NCBI GenBank assembly: GCA_001803875.1
Contig: MHEO01000019.1
Span: forward strand, 4,394-43,039
Direction: 5' to 3'
Source: Nitrospirae bacterium RIFCSPHIGHO2_01_FULL_66_17
GTDB taxonomy: Bacteria > Nitrospirota > Nitrospiria > 2-01-FULL-66-17
Length of the DNA stretch: 38,646 nt
Position numbers and translations under genes: made by a program. Positions 2,080 to 33,065 of the stretch are shown in pieces; within the stretch, counting starts at the first letter, position 1; each line of letters begins with the position of its first letter. Under the pieces are notes generated by a model that was not told where the DNA came from, made no database searches, and was given only the letters and a program-made list of their open reading frames with translations.

Positions 2080-2811
2080 ATGACGCCCGATTGGTTGCTC
2101 TACCTGATCACCGATCGCCATCTCATCGGTGATCGTCCGTTGACCGAAGTGGTGGCCGCCGCCTTGCATGGCGGAATCCGCGCCATTCAGCTCCGCGAGA
2201 AAGACCTCTCCAGCCGCGATCTGCTCCGCCACGCGACCGACCTCATCCCCCTGACCCGCAGCGCGGGAGCCGTCCTGCTCATCAACGATCGGATCGATGT
2301 AGCGTTGGCGGTCGGGGCCGACGGAGTCCATCTGCGGACCGACAGCCTGCCGACGCGGGTCGTGCGACGCGTCCTCGGCCCCCGAAAGCTGATCGGCGTC
2401 TCGACCCACTCGCTCGCCGACGTTCGCCGGGCCGCCGAGGAGGGCGCCGACTTCGTCACCTTCGGGCCGGTGTTCGCGACGCCGTCAAAAGCCCGATACG
2501 GCCGGCCGCTGGGGCTCGACGCGCTCGCCGAGGTGTGTCGGTGGAGCCCGATTCCGGTGTATGCGCTGGGCGGCATGGGAGGGGACCGCATCGCGTCGGC
2601 GATGGCCGCGGGCGCGCGGGGCGTCGCCATGATCTCCGCAGTCATGTCTCAACGGGATGTTCGCTCGGCGGCGGCGGCGTGCCTGGCGGCCGCCGAAGTG
2701 CACGGGCCGGCCGCGCGGTTGACCCACGTTTCCGCGGGTGTTACAATTCAGTCACACACAGGCGCCTCGCGGAATACCTCGATAGGATTATTAGGAAGGG
2801 AGGGGCCATGA
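2080..2811 (+). CDS. thiE: Thiamine-phosphate synthase ThiE with ~35-40 aa C-terminal extension
   Basis: ThiE-like sequence (LYLITD.., [50 protein letters not shown]). The stop TGA at 2809-2811 overlaps the mpa ATG (ATGA). Confidence 0.9.
2719..2747 (+). promoter_or_regulatory. Internal sigma70-type promoter for the Pup-proteasome operon, inside the thiE 3' end
   Basis: TTGACC at 2719-2724, a 17-nt spacer containing an extended -10 TG, and TACAAT at 2742-2747. A locally AT-richer leader follows, with a GGAAGGGAGGGG RBS before the ATG at 2808. Confidence 0.5.
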
Positions 2812-4559
2812 GCGAGTCAAAACGACAATCGGGCAAGCTCAATTCCTTAAAATCCACGCTCAGAAAGTTGCAGGACCAGCTGGCCGGCAACGATTCCGAC
2901 GAGCCCTTGGCCTATCGCCGCGAGATCGAGAAGCTGCAAGTCCAGATCCGAACGATGGAAGAGGAGCTCCACGAGACGGCGCAATCTCGGGATCAGCTCC
3001 AGCAGGCCCATCGACAGAACGAAAAGCTGATCCTGGCATTGCAGGAGGCGCGGGAGCAGATCGAGGCGCTCAAGATCGAGGTCGAAAAGCTCACCGCCCC
3101 GCCGTCCTCGTATGCGATTTTCTCCGACTCGAACGACGACGGGACCGTCAACATCTACATCGCGGGCCGGAAGATGAAGGTGAATCTCCACCCTGATGTG
3201 AAGGTTGGGGAGCTGCGGAAGGGGCAACAACTCGTCCTCAACGAGGCGCTCAATGTGGTGGAGGCGTGCGACTTTGAGATCCAGGGCGAGGTGGTCCGGC
3301 TCAAGGATCTGCTGAGCGAACACCGCGCGATCGTGTCGTTGCGGGGCGATGAAGAGCGGGTCGCGGAAATCGCCGCCCCCTTGCTCGGCGAGCGCCTGAG
3401 CGTGGGGGACCACGTCCTGTTTGACACGCGTTCGGGCTACCTGCTGGAGAAGCTGCCCAAATCCGAGGTCGAGGAAGTGGTGTTGGAAGAGGTGCCCGAC
3501 GTGAGCTACGAGCAGATCGGGGGCCTGACGGACCAGATCGAACAGATTCGCGACGCCGTCGAACTGCCCTTCCTCCATAAAGATCTCTTCGCGGAATATC
3601 ACCTGTCTCCGCCCAAGGGCATCCTGCTGTACGGTCCTCCCGGGTGCGGCAAGACGCTGATCGCGAAGGCGGTGGCCAACTCGATCGCGAAGAAGCTGGG
3701 CCACCTGACGGGGCGTGAGGTGAAGAGCTTCTTCCTGCACGTCAAAGGTCCAGAGTTGCTGAACAAATACGTGGGTGAAAGCGAGCGCCAGATCCGCGAG
3801 GTGTTCAAAAAGGCCAAAGAAAGAGCCCAGGAAGGGATGCCCGTCATCGTCTTCTTCGACGAGATGGACTCGCTCTTCCGCACGCGGGGGACGGGTATCT
3901 CATCGGATGTGGAGTCCACCATCGTGCCACAGTTCCTGGCCGAGATCGACGGAGTGGAGCGGCTCCGGAACGTGATCGTGATCGGGGCGAGCAATCGGCA
4001 GGATTTGATCGATCCGGCCGTCCTGCGTCCCGGTCGCCTCGACGTGAAGATTCGGATCGATCGGCCCGATCGCCGTGCGGCGAAGGACATCTTGGGGAAA
4101 TACCTCTCGACCGATCTCCCGTATCACCTCTCCGACGGCCGGACGGTCGCGGAGGTCGTGCCCGACCTGATCGACCAGGTGGTCGATCACATGTACAGCG
4201 CAAGCGAGGAGAACAAGTTCCTCGAAGTGACCTACGCCAATGGTGAGAAGGAGACGCTGTATTTTAAGGATTTCGCCAGCGGAGCGGTCATCGAAGGGGT
4301 CGTTTCGCGCGCGAAGAAATACGCGATCAAGCGCATCATCGCGACCAGCGAGCGCGGCATCCGCCTCGAGGACCTCCTCAAGGCCGTGCGGGATGAGTTC
4401 CGCGAGCAGGAGGATCTTCCAAACACCACCAACCCGGACGACTGGGCGAAGATCGCCGGGCGCAAGACCGAGAAGATCGTCCATGTCCGGACGATCACGA
4501 CCAGCCGGGCCACCGAATCGCGGAAGATCGAGACCGTCACAACCGGGCACTATTTATGA
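2808..4559 (+). CDS. mpa: Proteasome-associated AAA+ ATPase Mpa/ARC, 583 aa
   Basis: Long N-terminal coiled coil ([33 protein letters not shown]), Walker A GPPGCGKT, Walker [10 protein letters not shown], and a C-terminal GHYL (cf. the GQYL proteasome-docking motif). ATG at 2808 with a strong RBS. The track ORF 2535-4559 is an upstream extension. Confidence 0.95.
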
Positions 4560-6034
4560 CGCCTCGCATCCTCGGCACCGAGACGGAATTCGGGGTTGCG
4601 GTGAAGGACGCCGGTGTCCAGGACCCGGTGTCGAACGCCATTCTGTTGGTCAACAGCGTTGCCGCGGTGCCGTCCCGCACCACGCTGTGGGATTACGAGA
4701 ACGAGAACCCCCTCGTCGATGCCCGCGGGTTTGAGGTGGAAGGGGAGAAGGAGCGTCCCGCGCCGGACTACAATCGGTTGCTCAACAAGCTACTCGGAAA
4801 CGGCGGGCGCCTATACGTAGACGGGGCGCACCCCGAGTATGCGACGCCAGAGTGCACGCGGATCGCGGACGTCGTGCGGTATGAAAAAGCCGGCGAGCGG
4901 ATTGTGGAAGCGTGCCGGATGGGCGCCGACCGCACGAGCGGCGATCGTCGGTTCGTGATCTACAAGAACAACACCGACGGGAAGGGAAACAGTTACGGTT
5001 ACCACGAAAATTACCTCGTCTCGCGCTCCGTTCCCTTCATGCGGTTCGCGACGCATCTGACCCCCTTTTTCGTCACCCGGCAGATTTTCGCGGGGGCGGG
5101 CAAGGTGGGGGCGGAAAACCGCGCGGACTCCGCGCCGTACCAGATGTCGCAGCGCGCGGACTTCTTTGAGGTCCTGGTAGATTTGAACACCATGGTCAAG
5201 CGTCCGATCATCAACACGCGAGACGAACCCCACGCCGACCCCGCGAAGTACCGAAGGCTGCACGTGATCGTCGGCGATGCGAACATGTCCGAGGTCACGA
5301 CGTACCTCAAGTTGGGGGTCACGGCCCTCGTCGTGTCGATGATCGAAGAGGGCTACATGGTCAAGGAACCGAAGTTGGCCGACGCGGTGCGCTCGATCAA
5401 GGACGTGTCGCGCGATCTGACGCTCAAGCAGCCGATCGCGCTGGACGACGGCCGCCAATGGACTGCGGTGCAGGTCCAGGAGTATTATTTAGAAACCGCG
5501 CACCGTTATTGTGCGGAGCGCGGCGCCGATCCCGAAACCAAAGATATCCTGGCCCGCTGGGAGCGGGTGCTGAGGCTGCTGGCGAGCGATCCGTCGCAGT
5601 TGTCGCGTGAGATTGATTGGGTGATCAAGCAGGATCTCCTGCAATCGTACATCGACCGCAAGGGCTGCGATTGGGATGACCCTCGCGTGGCCATGATGGA
5701 TTTGCAGTACCACGATCTTCGGCCGGAGAAAGGCTTGTTTGCCACGTTGGACAAGGGTGGGTACGTCGATCGGCTCGTCGATCCGAACACCATCGACGAG
5801 GCGTTGACGGCGCCTCCGACCGATACCCGGGCGTATTTTCGAGGGCGATGCCTCCAAAAGTTTCCGGACCGAGTCTACGCCGCCAGTTGGGCGTCGATTC
5901 TCTTTGATGTGGGGCAGGCGGTGGTCAAACGCATTCCCCTCAATGAACCCGCGCGGGGGACCAAGGCGCTGGTCGGCGCCTTGCTGGACGAGTCGGACAC
6001 GGTGGAGGCGCTCGTCTCGCGCCTCAGCGCTTAA
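4556..6034 (+). CDS. dop: Pup deamidase/depupylase Dop, 492 aa
   Basis: Dop/PafA-family fold with Dop-specific features: [17 protein letters not shown] and an extra loop, plus a C-terminal [43 protein letters not shown]. The ATG overlaps the mpa stop (ATGA). Confidence 0.9.
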
Positions 6035-6093
6035 CCGGCCTGGGGCGTGCGGGCGCCGCGGGTTCCTAGCCTGCCGCAAGGGGGGTGATGACG

Positions 6094-6291
6094 ATGTCGC
6101 AGGAGAAGAAACGAGACCTGAAAAAAGTGGGTCGGCGCGACGAAGCGTCGGCAAGCCCCAACCCTGAAACCGTCGAAAAAGGAAAGAAGATGAAGGAAAA
6201 CATCGACAAGCTGCTCGATGAAATCGACGAGGTGTTGGAAGAGAACGCCGAGGAGTTTGTCAAAAACTACGTTCAAAAAGGAGGCGAGTGA
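6094..6291 (+). CDS. pup: Prokaryotic ubiquitin-like protein Pup, ending in GGE
   Basis: C-terminal half IDKLLDEIDEVLEENAEEFVKNYVQKGGE closely matches the conserved Pup helix and tail. The AAGGGGG RBS at ~6079-6085 favours the ATG at 6094; alternative starts are GTG 6085 and ATG 6088. Confidence 0.95.
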   Translation: MSQEKKRDLKKVGRRDEASASPNPETVEKGKKMKENIDKLLDEIDEVLEENAEEFVKNYVQKGGE

Positions 6292-7103
6292 CGGTGGTCT
6301 TCGACCCCGAACAGCTCGGATCAAGTTTTTACGATTTACTGATCACCCAGTACCCGCATCTCAGCCCCGGCCGTCCGATTCCTTGGACGGCCGGTCCGTC
6401 CCATGCGGACGCGTCTCCGCTTGCGGCGGCGGTTCCTCACGGGACCACGATTTTGGCCATTCGGTACGCGGGGGGGGTGGTGATTGCCGGCGATCGCCGG
6501 GCCACCGAGGGGTATCAAATCTCGGGCCGTCGCATCGAGAAGGTGTATAAGGTTGATGACTGGTCCGCGATGGCGATCGCCGGGGCGGCCGGTCCGTGCC
6601 TCGATATGGTCCGCCTGTTTCAAACCGAGTTGGAACACTACGAAAAACTCGAGGGCACCCCGCTGTCCGTCGACGGCAAGGCGAACAAGCTGGCCCAAAT
6701 GGTCAAAGGCAATTTGCCGTCGGCGTTCCAGGGGCTGATCGTGATCCCGCTCTTCGCCGGTTACGACGCGCGCCAGCGTGAGGGGCGGATTTTCAAATAC
6801 GACATCGCGGGGGGACGGTACGAAGAGACCGATTACCACGCGACCGGTTCCGGCGGGAAAGACGCCAAAACGGCGATCAAGCAGTATTATAAATCCGGTC
6901 TGAACGAGCATGAAGCGATCGGGTTGGCGGTGGAGGCGTTGTGCAATGCGGCCGAAGAGGACGTCGCGACCGGCGGACCGGATCCCAACCGGGGCATCTA
7001 TCCGACGGTGAAAACCGTGTCTGCGGCGGGGATTGTCGACGTCCCCTCCGAACGGATCGCGCCGTTTTATACGGCGTTCTTGGAAAAGCGGCGGGAGCGC
7101 TAA
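6288..7103 (+). CDS. prcB: 20S proteasome beta subunit PrcB with ~52-aa propeptide
   Basis: The HG|TTILAIRYAGGVVIAGDRRAT motif marks the propeptide cleavage site before the catalytic Thr. The GTG start overlaps the pup stop (GTGA). Confidence 0.95.
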   Translation: MTVVFDPEQLGSSFYDLLITQYPHLSPGRPIPWTAGPSHADASPLAAAVPHGTTILAIRYAGGVVIAGDRRATEGYQISGRRIEKVYKVDDWSAMAIAGAAGPCLDMVRLFQTELEHYEKLEGTPLSVDGKANKLAQMVKGNLPSAFQGLIVIPLFAGYDARQREGRIFKYDIAGGRYEETDYHATGSGGKDAKTAIKQYYKSGLNEHEAIGLAVEALCNAAEEDVATGGPDPNRGIYPTVKTVSAAGIVDVPSERIAPFYTAFLEKRRER

Positions 7104-7781
7104 ATGGCCTTACCCTACTACGTCTCGCCCGAACTGATCATGCAGGACAAGGCCGAGTATGCCAAGAAGGGCATCGCCCGCGGGCGCTCGACCGTCGCCA
7201 TGGAGTACGAGCACGGCGTGGTGCTCATGGCGGACAACCCCAGCGTGTCACTCAACAAGATCTCTGAGATCTACGACCACATCGCCTTCGCCGGCGCGGG
7301 GAAATACAGCGAGTTTGAGAATCTTCGGAAGGCGGGGATTCGTCACGCGGACATGAAGGGGTATCTCTACAGCCGAGAAGACGTGACGACCAAATCCTTG
7401 GCGAACGCCTACTCCCAGAGCCTTGGGACCATCTTCAGCCAGGAGATCAAGCCCCTGGAGGTCGAGATCCTGGTGGTCGGGCTTGGCGAGGGCGAGACCT
7501 CCGAGATGTACCGGATCTCGTTCGACGGCAGCATCTTTGACGAGAAGCTCGTCGCGGTGATCGGTGGTCGATCTGAGGCGATTATGGCGCACCTCAAGCA
7601 GCAGGTCGAGGGCCCGCGGCCCCTCCCTGACGCGCTCAAAAAAGGGTTGGAGGCGCTGGCGAGCGTCGGGCAACCGGAGCTTCGCTTGCAGCAGATGGAG
7701 ATCGCCGTGCTGGATCGCCGCCGATCCGGACGGAAGTTCAGGCGGTTGTCGCAGGCGGAGCTGATCGACCTCAGCGGGTGA
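7104..7781 (+). CDS. prcA: 20S proteasome alpha subunit PrcA
   Basis: Alpha-subunit-like sequence (YYVSPELIMQDKAEYAKKGIARGRS..). The ATG immediately follows the prcB TAA with a 0-nt gap. Confidence 0.93.
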   Translation: MALPYYVSPELIMQDKAEYAKKGIARGRSTVAMEYEHGVVLMADNPSVSLNKISEIYDHIAFAGAGKYSEFENLRKAGIRHADMKGYLYSREDVTTKSLANAYSQSLGTIFSQEIKPLEVEILVVGLGEGETSEMYRISFDGSIFDEKLVAVIGGRSEAIMAHLKQQVEGPRPLPDALKKGLEALASVGQPELRLQQMEIAVLDRRRSGRKFRRLSQAELIDLSG

Positions 7782-9166
7782 CTCGAATGATGCCCCCACG
7801 CATATTCGGACTCGAGAACGAATACGGGTTGATCTTTTCTCCCAACGGCCGGGTGTATCTGCCGATGGAGAAAATTCTGGGATACATCTTCGAAGGACTC
7901 ATCCCCAACAGTTGGCCGTCCAACGCCTTTTTGTGCAACGGGGCTCGGTTTTATCAAGACACCGGCTGTCACCCGGAGTACTCCACACCGGAATGCGATC
8001 ACCTGCGAGACCTTGTCATCCACGACAAAGCCGGCGAGCGGCTCTTGGAAGCCTGCCTACCGATGGCGGAGAAGCGCCTGCGCGAAGAAGGCCTCATCGG
8101 CGAGATTTACATTTTCAAGAACAACACCGATTCGATGGGGAACACCTACGGGTGTCACGAAAATTATCTGATGCGGCGCGATCTCGATTTCTGGAAAATC
8201 ACGGAGCAACTCATCCCGTTTTTCGTCACGCGCCAGATCTTTGCGGGAGCGGGCAAGGTGCTGAAAGTCTCCGGCCGGACCCATTTCTTTCTGTCCCAGC
8301 GGGCGCAGCACATCCACGAAAAGACCTCGTCCTCGACGACCTCGTCGCGGAGCATCATCAACACACGGGATGAGCCCCACGCGGACGCCGAAAAATATCG
8401 CCGGTTGCACATCATCGTCGGTGACTCGAACATGTCCGAACTGGCAACCTATCTGAAAGTCGGCACGACGGCGGTCGTACTCTCGATGATCGAGGAAGGA
8501 TTCACGGTCAAGGGTATGGAACTCGAGGATCCCGTCAAGGCGATCCGGGACATCTCCCGCGATCCGACGCTGAAGAAGCGCGTTCGACTCGAGGACGGCC
8601 GCGAATGGACGGCCCTTGAGATCCAGATGACGTACTGGGAGCGGGCGCAGGCGTACCTCGCGGCCCTGGGGTCGAGCGCCGACGAGACGACCCGGGACCT
8701 GATCGAGTATTGGGGAGACGTGTTACAGAAGTTGGCGACGAATCCGATGGAATTGGCTCAGGAGCTTGACTGGGTCATCAAAAAGAACGTGATGGATTCG
8801 TTCATCGCGCGCAAGAACTGCGGATGGGACGATCCCCGCGTCGCATTGATGGATCTCCAGTATCACGACGTGAAGCGGAATCGCGGGCTGTACTACCTGT
8901 TGGAGCGGCAGGATGTGGTCGAGCGGTTGGCGACCGAAGAGGAGATTCAGCGGGCCATGACGGTGCCGCCCCAGTCCACGCGGGCAAAAGTCCGTGGTGA
9001 TTTCATCAAGTTTGCGAAGGAGAAGAACCGGTCCTACACCGTCGACTGGACCTATTTGAAACTCAACGGGTACTGGGAGGAGACGATCCTCTGCATGGAC
9101 CCCTTCTCCAGTTCGAACAAACGCGTCGACGAACTGATCGCGGGCGTCGCTGTTTCCCACCGCTGA
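7778..9166 (+). CDS. pafA: Pup ligase PafA, 462 aa
   Basis: PafA-type sequence: [81 protein letters not shown], and a C-terminal VDWTYLKLN. GTG 7778 overlaps the prcA stop; ATG 7787 and 7790 are alternative starts. Confidence 0.93.
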   Translation: MTRMMPPRIFGLENEYGLIFSPNGRVYLPMEKILGYIFEGLIPNSWPSNAFLCNGARFYQDTGCHPEYSTPECDHLRDLVIHDKAGERLLEACLPMAEKRLREEGLIGEIYIFKNNTDSMGNTYGCHENYLMRRDLDFWKITEQLIPFFVTRQIFAGAGKVLKVSGRTHFFLSQRAQHIHEKTSSSTTSSRSIINTRDEPHADAEKYRRLHIIVGDSNMSELATYLKVGTTAVVLSMIEEGFTVKGMELEDPVKAIRDISRDPTLKKRVRLEDGREWTALEIQMTYWERAQAYLAALGSSADETTRDLIEYWGDVLQKLATNPMELAQELDWVIKKNVMDSFIARKNCGWDDPRVALMDLQYHDVKRNRGLYYLLERQDVVERLATEEEIQRAMTVPPQSTRAKVRGDFIKFAKEKNRSYTVDWTYLKLNGYWEETILCMDPFSSSNKRVDELIAGVAVSHR

Positions 9167-9167
9167 C

Positions 9168-10067
9168 GTGACGCCCATTCGCTTCTGGCTGCCACTTTTG
9201 CTGCTCATCACTGCCGGCCCGACGACCGCGGTGCAAGGACAGGAGGCGGCCGGCGCCGATGTCCGAACCGTCAGGCAGGGCGACGTCATTGCGCTGACCT
9301 TTCCCGTCCGAGATGGGATGCAGGCGGTCAGCCTCGACGCGCTCGTCGGGCGGTTTCAGGGACGGGAGGTGCCGGCGTTTTCAGATCCCGACGGGGTGGC
9401 GGTGCTGCTCGGCGTCGACATGGAAGACGCGCCCGGAACGAGCGACTTCGTGTTGGAACGCGGGGCCGGAGAGGAGAGGCGGGTGGGCGAGCGTGTGTCG
9501 ATCACGGTGACGCCTGGCGATTTCGGCGTTCAGGCGCTCTCGCTTCCCGATAAGCAGGTCGATCTCGATTCAGAGACGCTGCGGCGCGTTGAAATCGAAC
9601 AGCGGACGATGCTGACGGCCATGCAGCGCGTCACGCCGCGCGCGTGGGACGGTGCGTTCATCCTCCCCTCCGACGGGAACATTCAGAACACCTTCGGCCT
9701 GCGCCGGGTGATCAACGGCCAGCCGCGTCGCCCCCACACCGGCGAAGACATCAGCGCGCCGGCCGGGGCTCCCGTGTCGGCCATCAACCACGGAACGATC
9801 CGGCTCGTCGCCGACCATTTTTTCAGCGGCAAGAGCGTGGTCATCGATCATGGGCTCGGCCTGTATTCGATGTATTTTCACCTGTCGGATGTGACGGTCC
9901 ATGCGGGCGAGCGGGTCGCGAGGTCGCAGGTCATCGGCGCCGTCGGCGCGACCGGACGGACATCGGGTCCCCATCTGCACTGGGGGGTCCGCCTGAACGG
10001 CGCGCGGGTCAACCCACTGTCTCTCCCCGCGGCAACGGTCTCGCTCGGGATGCGAGACATTCCTTAG
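9168..10067 (+). CDS. Exported M23 (LytM-type) metallopeptidase
   Basis: N-terminal signal peptide (FWLPLLLLITAGPTTAVQG). Intact M23 catalytic motifs HxxxD (HTGEDI) and HxH (HLHWGV). The GTG start lies 1 nt after the pafA stop. Confidence 0.88.
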   Translation: MTPIRFWLPLLLLITAGPTTAVQGQEAAGADVRTVRQGDVIALTFPVRDGMQAVSLDALVGRFQGREVPAFSDPDGVAVLLGVDMEDAPGTSDFVLERGAGEERRVGERVSITVTPGDFGVQALSLPDKQVDLDSETLRRVEIEQRTMLTAMQRVTPRAWDGAFILPSDGNIQNTFGLRRVINGQPRRPHTGEDISAPAGAPVSAINHGTIRLVADHFFSGKSVVIDHGLGLYSMYFHLSDVTVHAGERVARSQVIGAVGATGRTSGPHLHWGVRLNGARVNPLSLPAATVSLGMRDIP

Positions 10068-10113: not shown

Positions 10114-10142
10114 TTGTCGAAACCGGATGCGCCGATTATAAT
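10114..10142 (+). promoter_or_regulatory. sigma70-type promoter (TTGTCG-17-TATAAT)
   Basis: TTGTCG at 10114-10119, a 17-nt spacer, and TATAAT at 10137-10142, about 30 nt upstream of the ATG at 10175. Confidence 0.5.
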
Positions 10143-10174: not shown

Positions 10175-10747
10175 ATGGAGTCGACGCACCGCATCAGTGA
10201 CCAGCATCCTCTCCGGATGTTCTTCACCATCTTGACCGAGAAGAATTTCTATGAGCAGCTCGGGTGGGTGGACCACGGGGTGATTCGCTACGTGGCCGAT
10301 CTCCTGGCCGACTTTTCACATGCCGATCGCGTGTATCGCTTCCAGGACCGGGACGGCCGGCGGTGCACCCTGGTGTCGGAGATGCTGCGCGATGCCGAAT
10401 CGGGATCGTCCGGCGTGCCGGAGCGCGACGTCCATCGCCAGATCGGGGATTTCACGCTGTTCATGATGGGGCTGTTCCCCGAGCACCTCGCCCGTCTGAA
10501 AACCAGGATTCTGGTGTCGGGGGGGGATTTCCTGCTCGACTACGTCAAGGTCGGCAAACGATCGTACCGGATTGTCTCGGAACTGCCCGAGGCGGCCGGT
10601 GAAGACGGCCAGGATGAGGCTCCCCTGTTCCGAAAACTCTCGGACCACTTTGAACTGTGCGTCGCGGGCCTGGGCTGTATCCGCGAGGATCTTCGGCGCG
10701 AACCCGACACCCCCCTGGACCGGTTTCGGGAACGGTTTCTCAACTGA
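10175..10747 (+). CDS. Hypothetical protein, 190 aa, no family recognised
   Basis: Clean ORF with its own promoter-like element. The amino-acid composition looks protein-like (FYEQLGWVDHGVIRYVADLLADF..IGDFTLFMMGLFPEHL). I recognise no motif. Confidence 0.6.
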   Translation: MESTHRISDQHPLRMFFTILTEKNFYEQLGWVDHGVIRYVADLLADFSHADRVYRFQDRDGRRCTLVSEMLRDAESGSSGVPERDVHRQIGDFTLFMMGLFPEHLARLKTRILVSGGDFLLDYVKVGKRSYRIVSELPEAAGEDGQDEAPLFRKLSDHFELCVAGLGCIREDLRREPDTPLDRFRERFLN

Positions 10748-10752
10748 CGCGG

Positions 10753-11457
10753 CTAGAGCTTTCGTTCTTCGATGACGACGTCGGCGCTCCGGCGCATGGC
10801 GTCCATGTAGGCGTTGAGGGTCCTCTCCTGCTTCTGGGGGAGCGGCGAAGGGAGGGTGGCGTCGGACGTTGGGCCGGGGTTCTGGGCCGCCTGGCGCGCC
10901 CGGGCGGCTTCCCAGTCGGGGGCGGACACGGCGGTCGAGTCGCCGACCAGCGACTTGACCTTGGCGATGAGCAGCTCGTCGCGTTGGTTGGTCTCGAAGG
11001 CCTCGGGCGTCATGTGATTGTTCTTGAGCACCCGGCGATACAGCTCGGGGTCAAACCGCCCGGTGTCTTCGCGCTGAAAGGCCTTTATGGCGGCGATGGA
11101 ATCGGCAAGCTCCTGAGGCGAGAGAGTGACGCTCATTCGGCGAGCGGTCTTCAGCCACAGCTCCCGCTCGACCAACGTGTTGATCACCTGGTGTTTGAGG
11201 TCAAGCTGCTTGAGCAGATCGGCGTTGAATTGGTCTTTGAACATGTCCCGGTAAAAGCGTTCCGCGTTGCGGTACGCGCGCTCGTACTCGTCGGAGGTGA
11301 TCGAGCGGTCGCCGATCTGCGCCACCACCGTGGACGCCTCGTCGTCGCCGAAGCCCCACCACCCCATGGTGATGACGAACGTGATCGCGATCACGAGCAT
11401 GATGCCGCGAAAAACCCAAGGATTCTCAATCGCGCCCTGCCGAAGGAACTTGATCAT
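10753..11457 (-). CDS. Membrane-anchored SurA_N/PpiD-like periplasmic chaperone lacking a PPIase domain, 234 aa
   Basis: The N-terminus (MIKFLRQGAIENPWVFRGIMLVIAITFVI) resembles the PpiD-type TM anchor. It is followed by a SurA_N-like region (VVAQIGDRSITSDEYERAY..LKHQVINTLVERELW). Confidence 0.7.
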   Translation of the reverse strand: MIKFLRQGAIENPWVFRGIMLVIAITFVITMGWWGFGDDEASTVVAQIGDRSITSDEYERAYRNAERFYRDMFKDQFNADLLKQLDLKHQVINTLVERELWLKTARRMSVTLSPQELADSIAAIKAFQREDTGRFDPELYRRVLKNNHMTPEAFETNQRDELLIAKVKSLVGDSTAVSAPDWEAARARQAAQNPGPTSDATLPSPLPQKQERTLNAYMDAMRRSADVVIEERKL

Positions 11458-11534
11458 CGACGCCCCCGCAATGGACGCTATTCTAGGGGATGCCGGCGTC
11501 CAAAAGCAACCCCCGCATTCCTGAGCGGGAGACC

Positions 11535-11563
11535 TTGCGCGGGCGGGCGATGTTCCCTATAAT
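11535..11563 (+). promoter_or_regulatory. sigma70-type promoter (TTGCGC-17-TATAAT)
   Basis: TTGCGC at 11535-11540, a 17-nt spacer, and TATAAT at 11558-11563. A GGAG RBS at 11570-11573 precedes the ATG at 11579. Confidence 0.5.
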
Positions 11564-30875: not shown

Positions 30876-33065
30876 ATGACGCGGCGTCGGTGGCCCCTGT
30901 CCGGTGGACGGCGGGCGCTCGGAGCGGCCGCGCTTGCGGTCGGCCTGCTGGTCCTCGCGCTCGCCGCGGTTCCGTTCTTTGTCGATCTCGATCGGTACCG
31001 GGACCGGTGGCTGCCCGCCGTCGAATCCGCGCTCGGGCACCGGGTGGAGGTGGGGCGCGTCGAGCTCACGGTGCTGACGGGGCTGGGCGCGCGGGTGGAC
31101 GGTCTGGCGGTCCACGGCGATCCGGCCGACCCCGAGCCCCTCCTCGCGGTGGAGTCGGTCCGCCTCCGCGTCCGGCTGCTTCCGCTCCTCCGCGGCCGCG
31201 TGGTCGTTGCGCGGGCGGTCCTCATCCGCCCCGCCCTTCGGTTCGTTGCACGCGCCGCCGGCCCGCCCGCCGCGGACGGCCCGCACGCCGGCGTCGGCGC
31301 ATCCCCCGACCAGCCGCCTGATTCGGCCCAGCCGAACGCATCCCGTTTCGGGCTGGCCGCCCTGTCGCTCGCCGACCTGACGATCCGGGACGGCTTGCTC
31401 TCCTACGAGGACCGGTCGGGAGGGGGGGCGGCCCGCTACGAATTGGATCGGATCGACGCGACACTCGCGCGCGTCGCGGTCGGCGAGACCCTCGCGGTGG
31501 ACGCGACGGGGCGTCTCGCGGGTGCCGACCTCCCGGTCTCGCTCACCGCGACGGCGGGCCCGCTGGACGCCACGTTCAAGCCCGCCGCTCTCGACGCGGC
31601 GCTCCAGATCGGCGACAGCCGCGTGACGCTCACCGGCACAACCGAGGCGGCGGGGCTCTCCCTGTCGGCTCGGGCCGAGCGCCTTGACCTGACGCAGCTT
31701 CTTGCGGCGACCCGCCGACTGACCGGTGCCGTGCCCGCGGCCCTCGCGCTCTCGGGTTCGGGCGCGTTCGCGCTGGCGGCGCGGCCGGCTGGCGATCGGT
31801 ACGAGCTCGACGGCCGGATCGACCTCGATGCCGCCCGCGTCGCTTACGGGACGTGGTTTGCGAAGCCCGAAGGCGTGCCGTGCTCGGCGGCGTTCACCGG
31901 CGCGTTGAGTCGGGACGAGGCGCGGACGCCTCAGGTGGCGCTGTCCGCCGTCACGGTGCGCCTGCATACCGTCGAGGCCACAGGGCGCGCGACGGTCGCG
32001 CTCGGCGGCCGCTTCTTGGTGCCGTTTTACGAGCGGATCGTCGGACGGGGGGAGCTCGACACAGGCGATACGCCGCTTGACGGCTGGGAGCGCCTCGTCC
32101 CGGCCCTGGGGGGCGGCGCGCTGTCCGGGCGCGCGCGGCTCCGGGCGGCGTGGGCGCTCGACGCGGCTCACCCGCCCGCGTACACCGCGTCGGTCCGCCT
32201 CACCGACGCGCGGGTGGCGGTTGGGGGATGGGCCAAGCCGATCGAGGGCGTCACCGGCACGGTGGCGCTGGAGCGCGGGGTGGTGGTGCTCAAGTCGGTC
32301 ACGGCGAGGGTGGACGACGGCGCCGTGACCCTCCGCGGCCGGATCGACCCGTTCGCGCCGAAGCCCGCGTTCGATCTCGACGTCGGCGTGGATCGGGTGC
32401 AGGCGGCCGACGTCTTGGCGCGCTTCACCTCGCTCAAGGACTTTCTTTCCGGTCGGCTGACGGGCCAGGTGGCGCTCTCGGGGGTGGGGACGACGTGGGA
32501 AGACCTCGCGCCCACGCTGACCGGGCGGGGCGAGCTGGCGGTGACGGAGGGCGTGTTTCGGACGTTCAACGTCCTCAAGGATCTGCTGGGATCGGCGGAG
32601 GCGCTGGAGACGAGCCGGCTGGCCGAGCGGCCCGACACGCCGTTCGACCGCTTTGCGGCCTTGATCGAGATCCGCGACCAGGCGCTGCGCATCCAGGACG
32701 CCCGGCTTTCCGCGGGGGAGTTCGGCGCGACCGCTGATGGTGTCGTCGGGTTCGACTCGTCGATCGATGCCCGGGCGCGGGTGAGCGTGCCGCGGGCGTC
32801 GGTCGGCGGATTCGCCAACACCGCCATCGGAGCCGCACTGGCGGGCGACGACGGTCGCCTCCACATCCCGGTCCGCCTTTCGGGACGGCTTCCGAAGCCG
32901 GCCGTCGCCCTGGACCGGACCGCAGCGCTGGATGAGGCGACGCAGCGCCTGCGCAAGCGGGCGAGCGAGACGCTGCGCGAGTTCCTGGATCAGCCGGAGT
33001 CGGATGGGAAAGCGTCCCCCCGGGACCTGCTCAAAGGGTTGCTGAAGCGGGAAGACGGTCGGTGA
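30876..33065 (+). CDS. AsmA family outer-membrane biogenesis / lipid transport protein, 729 aa
   Basis: N-terminal TM anchor followed by AsmA-like repeats (VGRVELTVLTGLGARVDGLAV.., LLRGRVVVARAVLIRP, C-terminal LSGRLPKPAVALD). Long beta-rich periplasmic protein. Confidence 0.75.
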   Translation: MTRRRWPLSGGRRALGAAALAVGLLVLALAAVPFFVDLDRYRDRWLPAVESALGHRVEVGRVELTVLTGLGARVDGLAVHGDPADPEPLLAVESVRLRVRLLPLLRGRVVVARAVLIRPALRFVARAAGPPAADGPHAGVGASPDQPPDSAQPNASRFGLAALSLADLTIRDGLLSYEDRSGGGAARYELDRIDATLARVAVGETLAVDATGRLAGADLPVSLTATAGPLDATFKPAALDAALQIGDSRVTLTGTTEAAGLSLSARAERLDLTQLLAATRRLTGAVPAALALSGSGAFALAARPAGDRYELDGRIDLDAARVAYGTWFAKPEGVPCSAAFTGALSRDEARTPQVALSAVTVRLHTVEATGRATVALGGRFLVPFYERIVGRGELDTGDTPLDGWERLVPALGGGALSGRARLRAAWALDAAHPPAYTASVRLTDARVAVGGWAKPIEGVTGTVALERGVVVLKSVTARVDDGAVTLRGRIDPFAPKPAFDLDVGVDRVQAADVLARFTSLKDFLSGRLTGQVALSGVGTTWEDLAPTLTGRGELAVTEGVFRTFNVLKDLLGSAEALETSRLAERPDTPFDRFAALIEIRDQALRIQDARLSAGEFGATADGVVGFDSSIDARARVSVPRASVGGFANTAIGAALAGDDGRLHIPVRLSGRLPKPAVALDRTAALDEATQRLRKRASETLREFLDQPESDGKASPRDLLKGLLKREDGR

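Follow-up and report, generated by a model that had tools for sequence, protein, structure and literature searches.

A compact Pup-proteasome gene cluster in an uncultured Nitrospiria bacterium and its conservation in the class

The cluster and its described counterparts

The presence of Pup, of PafA paralogues and of linked proteasome genes in nitrospirae was described by Iyer, Burroughs and Aravind (2008; PMC2588565). Barandun, Delley and Weber-Ban (2012; PMC3511204) considered that the nitrospirae machinery was probably obtained from Acidimicrobiales by horizontal transfer, and Leptospirillum ferrooxidans was found to have two full copies, one of which encodes a Pup without GGE (PMC3511204). 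More recently, Hecht et al. (2020; PMC7947786) dealt with Dop and PafA of Nitrospira, placed the system in Nitrospirae and inferred an actinobacterial origin. A homologous machinery, the UBact-proteasome system, is attributed to Lehmann et al. (2017; PMID 28087277) in the part of PMC5751360 that cites them. Here, we analyze a cluster of the genes mpa, dop, pup, prcB, prcA, and pafA in a stretch of 38,646 nucleotides of Nitrospirae bacterium RIFCSPHIGHO2_01_FULL_66_17 (assembly GCA_001803875.1, contig MHEO01000019.1, positions 4,394 to 43,039), which we call the window. The finding as such is already known, as it is a further instance of a system described in Nitrospirae since 2008. We are highly confident that these genes, which belong to a Nitrospiria bacterium, encode a canonical Pup-proteasome system in one compact operon that is old and vertically inherited rather than recently acquired.

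The actinobacterial system, as known from M. tuberculosis and Rhodococcus, has the same six components and the same gene order as the window. The two also share a PrcB propeptide that ends at a G/T site (the slash marks the cleavage point) and an Mpa with a [Q/H]YL tail at the C-terminus. They differ in several respects. The Pup of the window ends in GGE whereas the mycobacterial one ends in GGQ, and the host of the window is a diderm Nitrospirota. In the window the six genes are tightly clustered, with pafA immediately behind prcA, and pafA is followed by the gene of an exported M23 peptidase instead of pafB/pafC. The loci previously described in Nitrospirae (the L1 locus of Leptospirillum, Dop and PafA of Nitrospira) are from the same phylum and have the six genes in the order found in the window. 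Relative to the Nitrospira-like genomes, however, the window represents an uncultured family of Nitrospiria, its Dop is 57-65% identical, and its pup lies inside the cluster whereas that of the Nitrospira-like family f3 is found elsewhere. Finally, the UBact system has a homologous set of six genes (ATPase, Dop-like, small tag, beta, alpha, PafA-like), but its tag ends in RTGE and is recognized by the model NF033388, whereas the tag of the window is a Pup ending in GGE that is recognized by TIGR03687.

The six genes are contiguous at positions 2808-9166 of the plus strand, and the open reading frame listing and the translations show that all their frames are open (Table 1). The mpa/dop junction is an ATGA overlap, the pup/prcB and prcA/pafA junctions are GTGA overlaps, and prcB and prcA abut with a gap of 0 nt. 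The gap between dop and pup is 50-59 nt depending on the start of pup, for which GTG 6085, ATG 6088, and ATG 6094 are in frame; the latter has the best spacing to a GGGGGG ribosome-binding site. The Pfam scan revealed AAA, Prot_ATP_ID_OB_N, and Prot_ATP_ID_OB_C domains, two Pup_ligase matches, one Pup, and two Proteasome matches. Since some of these families include paralogues, we used the NCBIfam equivalog models with their curated cut-offs to tell them apart, and all six proteins exceed the cut-off of their own model. Mpa scores 745 bits on TIGR03689 (pup_AAA, cut-off 504.75), Pup 65.3 bits on TIGR03687 (cut-off 41.45; E=6.6e-21 on PF05639), PrcB 304.2 bits on TIGR03690 (20S beta, cut-off 191.9), and PrcA 286.6 bits on TIGR03691 (20S alpha, cut-off 139.05). 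The two ligase-family enzymes are separated by the same models: Dop scores 577.6 bits on TIGR03688 (cut-off 492.3) and 422.3 bits on the PafA model, under the cut-off of the latter (551.3), whereas PafA scores 567.2 bits on TIGR03686 (cut-off 551.3) and 431.5 bits on the Dop model, under 492.3. The Pup-proteasome module is complete and intact.

Table 1. Features of the window, with the genes of the cluster first (positions are those of the window)
Feature	Position	Strand	Description and evidence
mpa/arc, proteasomal AAA+ ATPase	2808-4559	+	583 aa; TIGR03689, Pfam, PDB match
dop, depupylase/deamidase	4556-6034	+	492 aa, Dop-specific loop; TIGR03688
pup	6094-6291	+	65 aa from ATG 6094; PF05639, TIGR03687
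prcB, 20S beta subunit	6288-7103	+	271 aa; TIGR03690
prcA, 20S alpha subunit	7104-7781	+	225 aa; TIGR03691
pafA, Pup-protein ligase	7778-9166	+	462 aa; TIGR03686
Promoter-like site, sigma-70 type	2719-2747	+	TTGACC-17-TACAAT, extended -10 TG; 10/12 matches in consensus scan
Shine-Dalgarno region before mpa	2793-2805	+	AGGAAGGGAGGGG, read from sequence
thiE, thiamine-phosphate synthase, upstream neighbour	2080-2811	+	Pfam TMP-TENI, residues 7-188; TIGR00693, 187 bits
M23 peptidoglycan metallopeptidase, exported	9168-10067	+	Peptidase_M23, E=3e-28
SurA_N_3 protein	10753-11457	-	E=4.6e-43
AsmA/DUF748	30876-33065		

The motifs expected of these proteins can be read in the translations. Mpa consists of an N-terminal coiled coil, two OB domains, and an AAA module, with GPPGCGKT at Walker A, FFDEMD at Walker B, and a C-terminus TGHYL that contains the GHYL tail. 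Its best PDB match is Mpa of M. tuberculosis (7px9, 654.8 bits over residues 28-582), and the alignment reaches the C-terminus, where ...tghyL of the window stands opposite ...gqyL. Dop is 50.6% identical to Acidothermus Dop (4B0R, 513.6 bits, residues 4-490), in an alignment that takes in the loop region 40-80. PafA, which is without the Dop loop, is 42% identical to PafA of C. glutamicum (4B0T, 385 bits, residues 5-458), and the YxD...HPEY active-site stretch of both enzymes aligns with 4B0R and 4B0T. The propeptide of PrcB is 52 residues long as read from the sequence, with the cleavage site at G52/T53; the protein reads ...VPHG/TTILAIRYAGGVVIAGD...IEK, which provides Thr1, Asp17, and Lys33. 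It matches the Rhodococcus beta subunit 2h6j with 251 bits, including the conserved phgtt motif, and the best PDB match of PrcA is the Rhodococcus alpha subunit 1q5q (213.6 bits). Hence, the closest solved structures of the window proteins are their actinobacterial orthologues, in alignments of nearly full length. Pup carries the motif GGGGTGATGACnATGTC, which is conserved within the family, and its C-terminus is YVQKGGE, i.e., it can be ligated without prior deamidation. The initial annotation of this DNA had described a complete module of six contiguous genes, the junctions between them, and as intact hallmarks the Walker motifs, the C-terminal GHYL, and the G/TT of PrcB, and our reading frames, translations, Pfam matches, and equivalog scores agree with it on each of these.

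Orthology was established from sequence, and the working proposed here follows from this orthology together with what biochemistry has shown for Actinobacteria. In an ATP-dependent reaction, PafA would attach Pup, by its C-terminal glutamate, to lysines of substrate proteins, and no deamidation step would be required for a Pup encoded as GGE. The Mpa hexamer would bind Pup with its coiled coils, unfold the tagged protein, and dock on the 20S core by its C-terminal GHYL tail. The propeptide of PrcB would be removed autocatalytically between Gly52 and Thr53, after which the PrcA/PrcB core would degrade the substrate. Since the tag of the window needs no deamidation, Dop is expected to act as a depupylase that removes or recycles it.

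Host and distribution across Nitrospirota

The window corresponds to contig C19 in a metagenome-assembled genome (MAG) of 1.4 Mb from the class Nitrospiria, 65% complete and with 0.35% contamination. To place it, we scanned the Dop protein against one genome per prokaryotic species and considered the best 80 loci. Their titles are Nitrospirota, Nitrospiria, Nitrospirales, Nitrospiraceae, or Nitrospira, except for two 'uncultured Nitrosospira sp.' (L048 and L085), which have the same synteny and fall in the same identity range as the others. Identity is highest, 84%, to a 'Nitrospiria bacterium', and is 57-65% to the others in these 80. The same genome encodes an Omp85/BamA protein (209 bits). 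We failed to identify LpxC in the assembly, which is not unexpected since the genome is only 65% complete, and LpxC is present in 5/5 relatives of the genus and family. In addition to the AsmA/DUF748 and SurA_N_3 proteins, the window carries a PBP1B with UB2H and the genes mreBCD-mrdA-rodA. Considering the Nitrospirota affiliation of the Dop relatives, the BamA of the genome, the LpxC of its relatives, and the AsmA, PBP1B-UB2H, and SurA_N_3 proteins of the window, the host is a diderm, non-actinobacterial bacterium. This is what the initial annotation had proposed with the AsmA and SurA_N neighbours, both of which we recovered, as its markers; a placement inside Actinobacteria, which it had named as the contrary outcome, is at odds with best Dop loci that are essentially all Nitrospirota by title.

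Two further loci of this genome were considered. The plus-strand open reading frame 10657-11562 was rejected as a gene, as it matches no family and is the shadow of the SurA_N_3 gene on the minus strand. Outside the window, there is a third match to the Proteasome family (PF00227) at G000:C12:7140-7646, with 75.5 bits, which is probably HslV- or Anbu-like.

Within the class, the system is universal. The Pup-ligase family (PF03136) was identified in 41 of the 41 class genomes sampled, and so was pup (PF05639). We studied the synteny by tblastn of the window proteins against 86 related loci, and found the order thiS-thiG-thiE, mpa, dop, (pup), prcB, prcA, pafA, M23 nearly everywhere the contig was long enough, such that the order of the six genes in the window is the one of its relatives. 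The identity to the copies of other Nitrospirota is 72-95% for PafA and 57-84% for Dop, compared with 42% and 51%, respectively, to actinobacterial proteins. We then surveyed the phylum in 121 genomes with a completeness of 85% or more, and identified the Pup-ligase family in 52 of them. These 52 include all 27 genomes of the class of the window (the window genome and 26 relatives) as well as three additional families. Many other families of Nitrospirota lack it, e.g., none of the 26 genomes of family f17 has a match. These results show that the system is fixed in certain lineages of Nitrospirota and not sporadic within them. The initial annotation had given Nitrospirota as an example of sporadic occurrence outside Actinobacteria; the comparison with this phylum was apt, but sporadic is not the word for a system found in every genome of the class. 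The cluster is vertically inherited and old in the class, and any transfer was ancient, at or before the class root.

The end of the tag varies between loci: Pup ends in GGE at most loci of Nitrospiria, and in GGQ at L008 11480-11689, L012 11452-11685, and L018 11468-11719. The deamidase role of Dop is thus still needed in the relatives with GGQ tags. We also searched the 41 class genomes for the Bpa/PafE family (PF10759) and found no match, but neither did any control genome match.

In most loci of Nitrospiraceae, tblastn and a motif scan identified no pup between dop and prcB, and we considered that the gene might have been lost in the Nitrospira-like genomes. This was rejected because every genome turned out to have one pup in the search with PF05639. 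The gene is absent from its usual place in the Nitrospira-like family f3. One of its genomes, G035, has a spacing of just 23 nt between dop and prcB (L098 285-309), and an intact pup ending in GGE on another contig (L096 3147-3344). There, the neighbours of pup are a gene encoding a polytopic membrane protein of 684 aa and a recJ-like gene, both read by eye with no family scan; read in this way, the 684-aa protein looks like a proton-pumping pyrophosphatase. In other f3 genomes, pup is 45-60 kb from the cluster. A published generalization states that pup always adjoins a gene of the PafA family (PMC2588565), and the relocated pup of f3 runs against this rule. We did not meet this exception in the literature, in which no search aimed at it was made.

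Expression of the cluster and the downstream peptidase

Immediately upstream of the cluster lies thiE, whose frame extends around 36 codons beyond the ThiE domain, across the predicted promoter and the ribosome-binding site of mpa, and whose terminal TGA overlaps the ATG of mpa (ATGA). The initial annotation counted this junction among the translationally coupled ones. The overlap is indeed present, but a conserved coupling is not what the comparison suggests. In 5/5 relatives of the family, thiE stops 58-74 nt before the ATG of mpa; among six genomes of the family only the one of the window has the overlap, since the usual stop was lost there. In the junction alignment of these six genomes, the bases around GGTTGACC and GGTGTTAnAAT vary, whereas the two motifs themselves are invariant and keep their spacing. 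They correspond to the sigma-70-type promoter-like site of Table 1. Further downstream, GAAAGGAGGGGC of the ribosome-binding site is conserved ahead of mpa, as are the first codons of mpa. Because thiE ends earlier in the relatives and the promoter-like site is shared, the thiE/mpa overlap is a local accident of the window genome and not a conserved coupling. Hence, mpa most likely has its own promoter, and the site at 2719-2747 is probably the one of the Pup-proteasome operon.

Alternatively, the operon could span thiS-thiG-thiE-mpa and the following genes up to pafA, be driven from another promoter-like site at 944-973, and include a genuine translational coupling of thiE and mpa. This site precedes thiS and has 11/12 matches to the consensus, thiS-thiG-thiE are ahead of mpa across the whole class, the stop of thiE in the window does overlap the ATG of mpa, and no terminator-like site was found between the two genes. 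Yet the overlap is not conserved in the five family relatives, all six genomes have the invariant island with its -35 and extended -10 past the ThiE domain and ahead of mpa, and in more distant relatives the tblastn matches of thiE and mpa are separated by gaps of 110-280 nt. We consider this arrangement rather unlikely. Read-through from thiS is not required, although it may add to the expression of the cluster. Upstream of thiS-thiG-thiE, the window encodes a small PilZ-domain protein (109 aa, 618-947).

Transcription most likely starts at the promoter-like site inside the 3' end of thiE. The transcript would run through mpa-dop-pup-prcB-prcA-pafA, by overlapping or abutting cistrons, and possibly on into the M23 gene. 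Our scan found no terminator-like sites in the plus-strand junctions, which fits one transcript from around position 2754 through pafA. In the dop-pup spacer, the family alignment shows no conserved element but the ribosome-binding site.

The M23 gene begins one base after the stop of pafA. Its product has a signal peptide and the motifs HTGED and HLH, such that HxxxD and HxH are intact in the translation. The gene is downstream of pafA in most loci of Nitrospiria whose contig extends beyond pafA. Since the gap is one base and the next promoter-like site is only found at 10114-10142, the M23 gene may be co-transcribed with the Pup operon. The protein itself belongs to the periplasm rather than to the Pup machinery. 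The Pfam scan of the window found no WYL/PafBC-like gene after pafA, in line with the initial annotation, which had noted that pafB and pafC are missing. It had also seen the M23 gene as taking their place in this locus, a view that does not fit a gene conserved next to pafA throughout the class.

The UBact-type second cluster and the alternative origins

Many relatives of the window genome hold four Pup-ligase genes. In G001 (same genus), G003, G035, and G009, we identified a second complete cluster, mpa2-dop2-small ORF (open reading frame)-prcB2-prcA2-pafA2, located at L087 4210-10685 in G001 and also in L088, L089, and L090. The proteins of this cluster are 25-43% identical to those of the window. 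Its small ORF ends in QRTGE and is a UBact according to NF033388 (85.7 and 76.8 bits, for a cut-off of 35), and its enzymes score under the equivalog cut-offs of the Pup system. In the assembled part of the window genome, which is 65% complete, we found no UBact gene. The tag of the window matched only the Pup model TIGR03687; it has neither a match to NF033388 nor the R[TS]G[EQ] end of UBact tags. In a small tree, Dop and PafA of the window are placed with their counterparts from Acidothermus (Dop) and C. glutamicum (PafA), apart from the pair of the UBact cluster; PafA of the window groups with 4B0T with a support of 91/98. Only two sequences of this tree are actinobacterial, each on a long branch, and its deep nodes are weak (77/81); the direction of transfer is taken from published trees.

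These observations could be extended into a broader picture, in which the lineage runs the Pup and UBact systems in parallel, the Pup operon is wired into envelope or cell-shape physiology by its class-wide linkage to M23 and the mreBCD region, and the relocation of pup in f3 is an exception that was never described. We find this picture quite unlikely as a whole.

It is also conceivable that the window does not encode a working Pup system at all, and that the module is instead of the UBact type, some other non-canonical tagging system, or a relic in decay. A genome of the same genus and other Nitrospiria do carry the divergent mpa2-dop2-UBact-prcB2-prcA2-pafA2 cluster, and in the literature searched we found no demonstration at the bench of pupylation in Nitrospirota. 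However, the tag of the window matches TIGR03687 and PF05639 and ends in GGE, whereas an RTGE end and a match to NF033388 characterize UBact. The enzymes of the window pass the equivalog cut-offs of the Pup system, of which those of the UBact cluster fall short, and six open frames with intact catalytic residues are not in line with a relic. We therefore regard these possibilities as highly improbable.

Finally, a recent horizontal transfer of the cluster from an actinobacterium, or an actinobacterial contaminant contig in the MAG, would account for best solved-structure matches that are all actinobacterial, for a G+C content of the cluster 3-8 points under that of its flanks, and for the actinobacterial origin inferred in the literature (PMC3511204, PMC7947786), but it is almost certainly wrong, since the same cluster with its flanking thi and M23 genes is present class-wide (41/41 genomes), Dop and PafA are closer to their Nitrospirota than to their actinobacterial counterparts and the best Dop loci are from Nitrospirota, the contig carries the diderm genes AsmA, SurA_N, and PBP1B with UB2H, and the contamination of the bin is 0.35%.

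Some points nevertheless weigh against a canonical, vertically inherited operon as we describe it. The promoter is predicted from a consensus match and from conservation, and the co-transcription of the genes, the start site, and the activity of the system are likewise predictions. With a genome 65% complete, the window genome may or may not hold the second, UBact system of its genus. The G+C of the cluster is 0.60-0.62, against 0.64-0.70 in the flanks; as the cluster is conserved class-wide, we attribute this dip to protein constraint.

The cluster has little weight as a discovery, since standard annotation models name all six of its genes. Its value lies in the context: the system is universal and syntenic in Nitrospiria, confined to certain lineages in the phylum, has a conserved predicted promoter of its own, and often occurs in genomes that also have a paralogous system of the UBact type. 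The literature searched reports no pupylome for Nitrospiria. Nitrospiria are key nitrite oxidisers, and cultured Nitrospira are reasonable organisms for studying the roles of a pair of parallel proteasome systems in Gram-negative cells.

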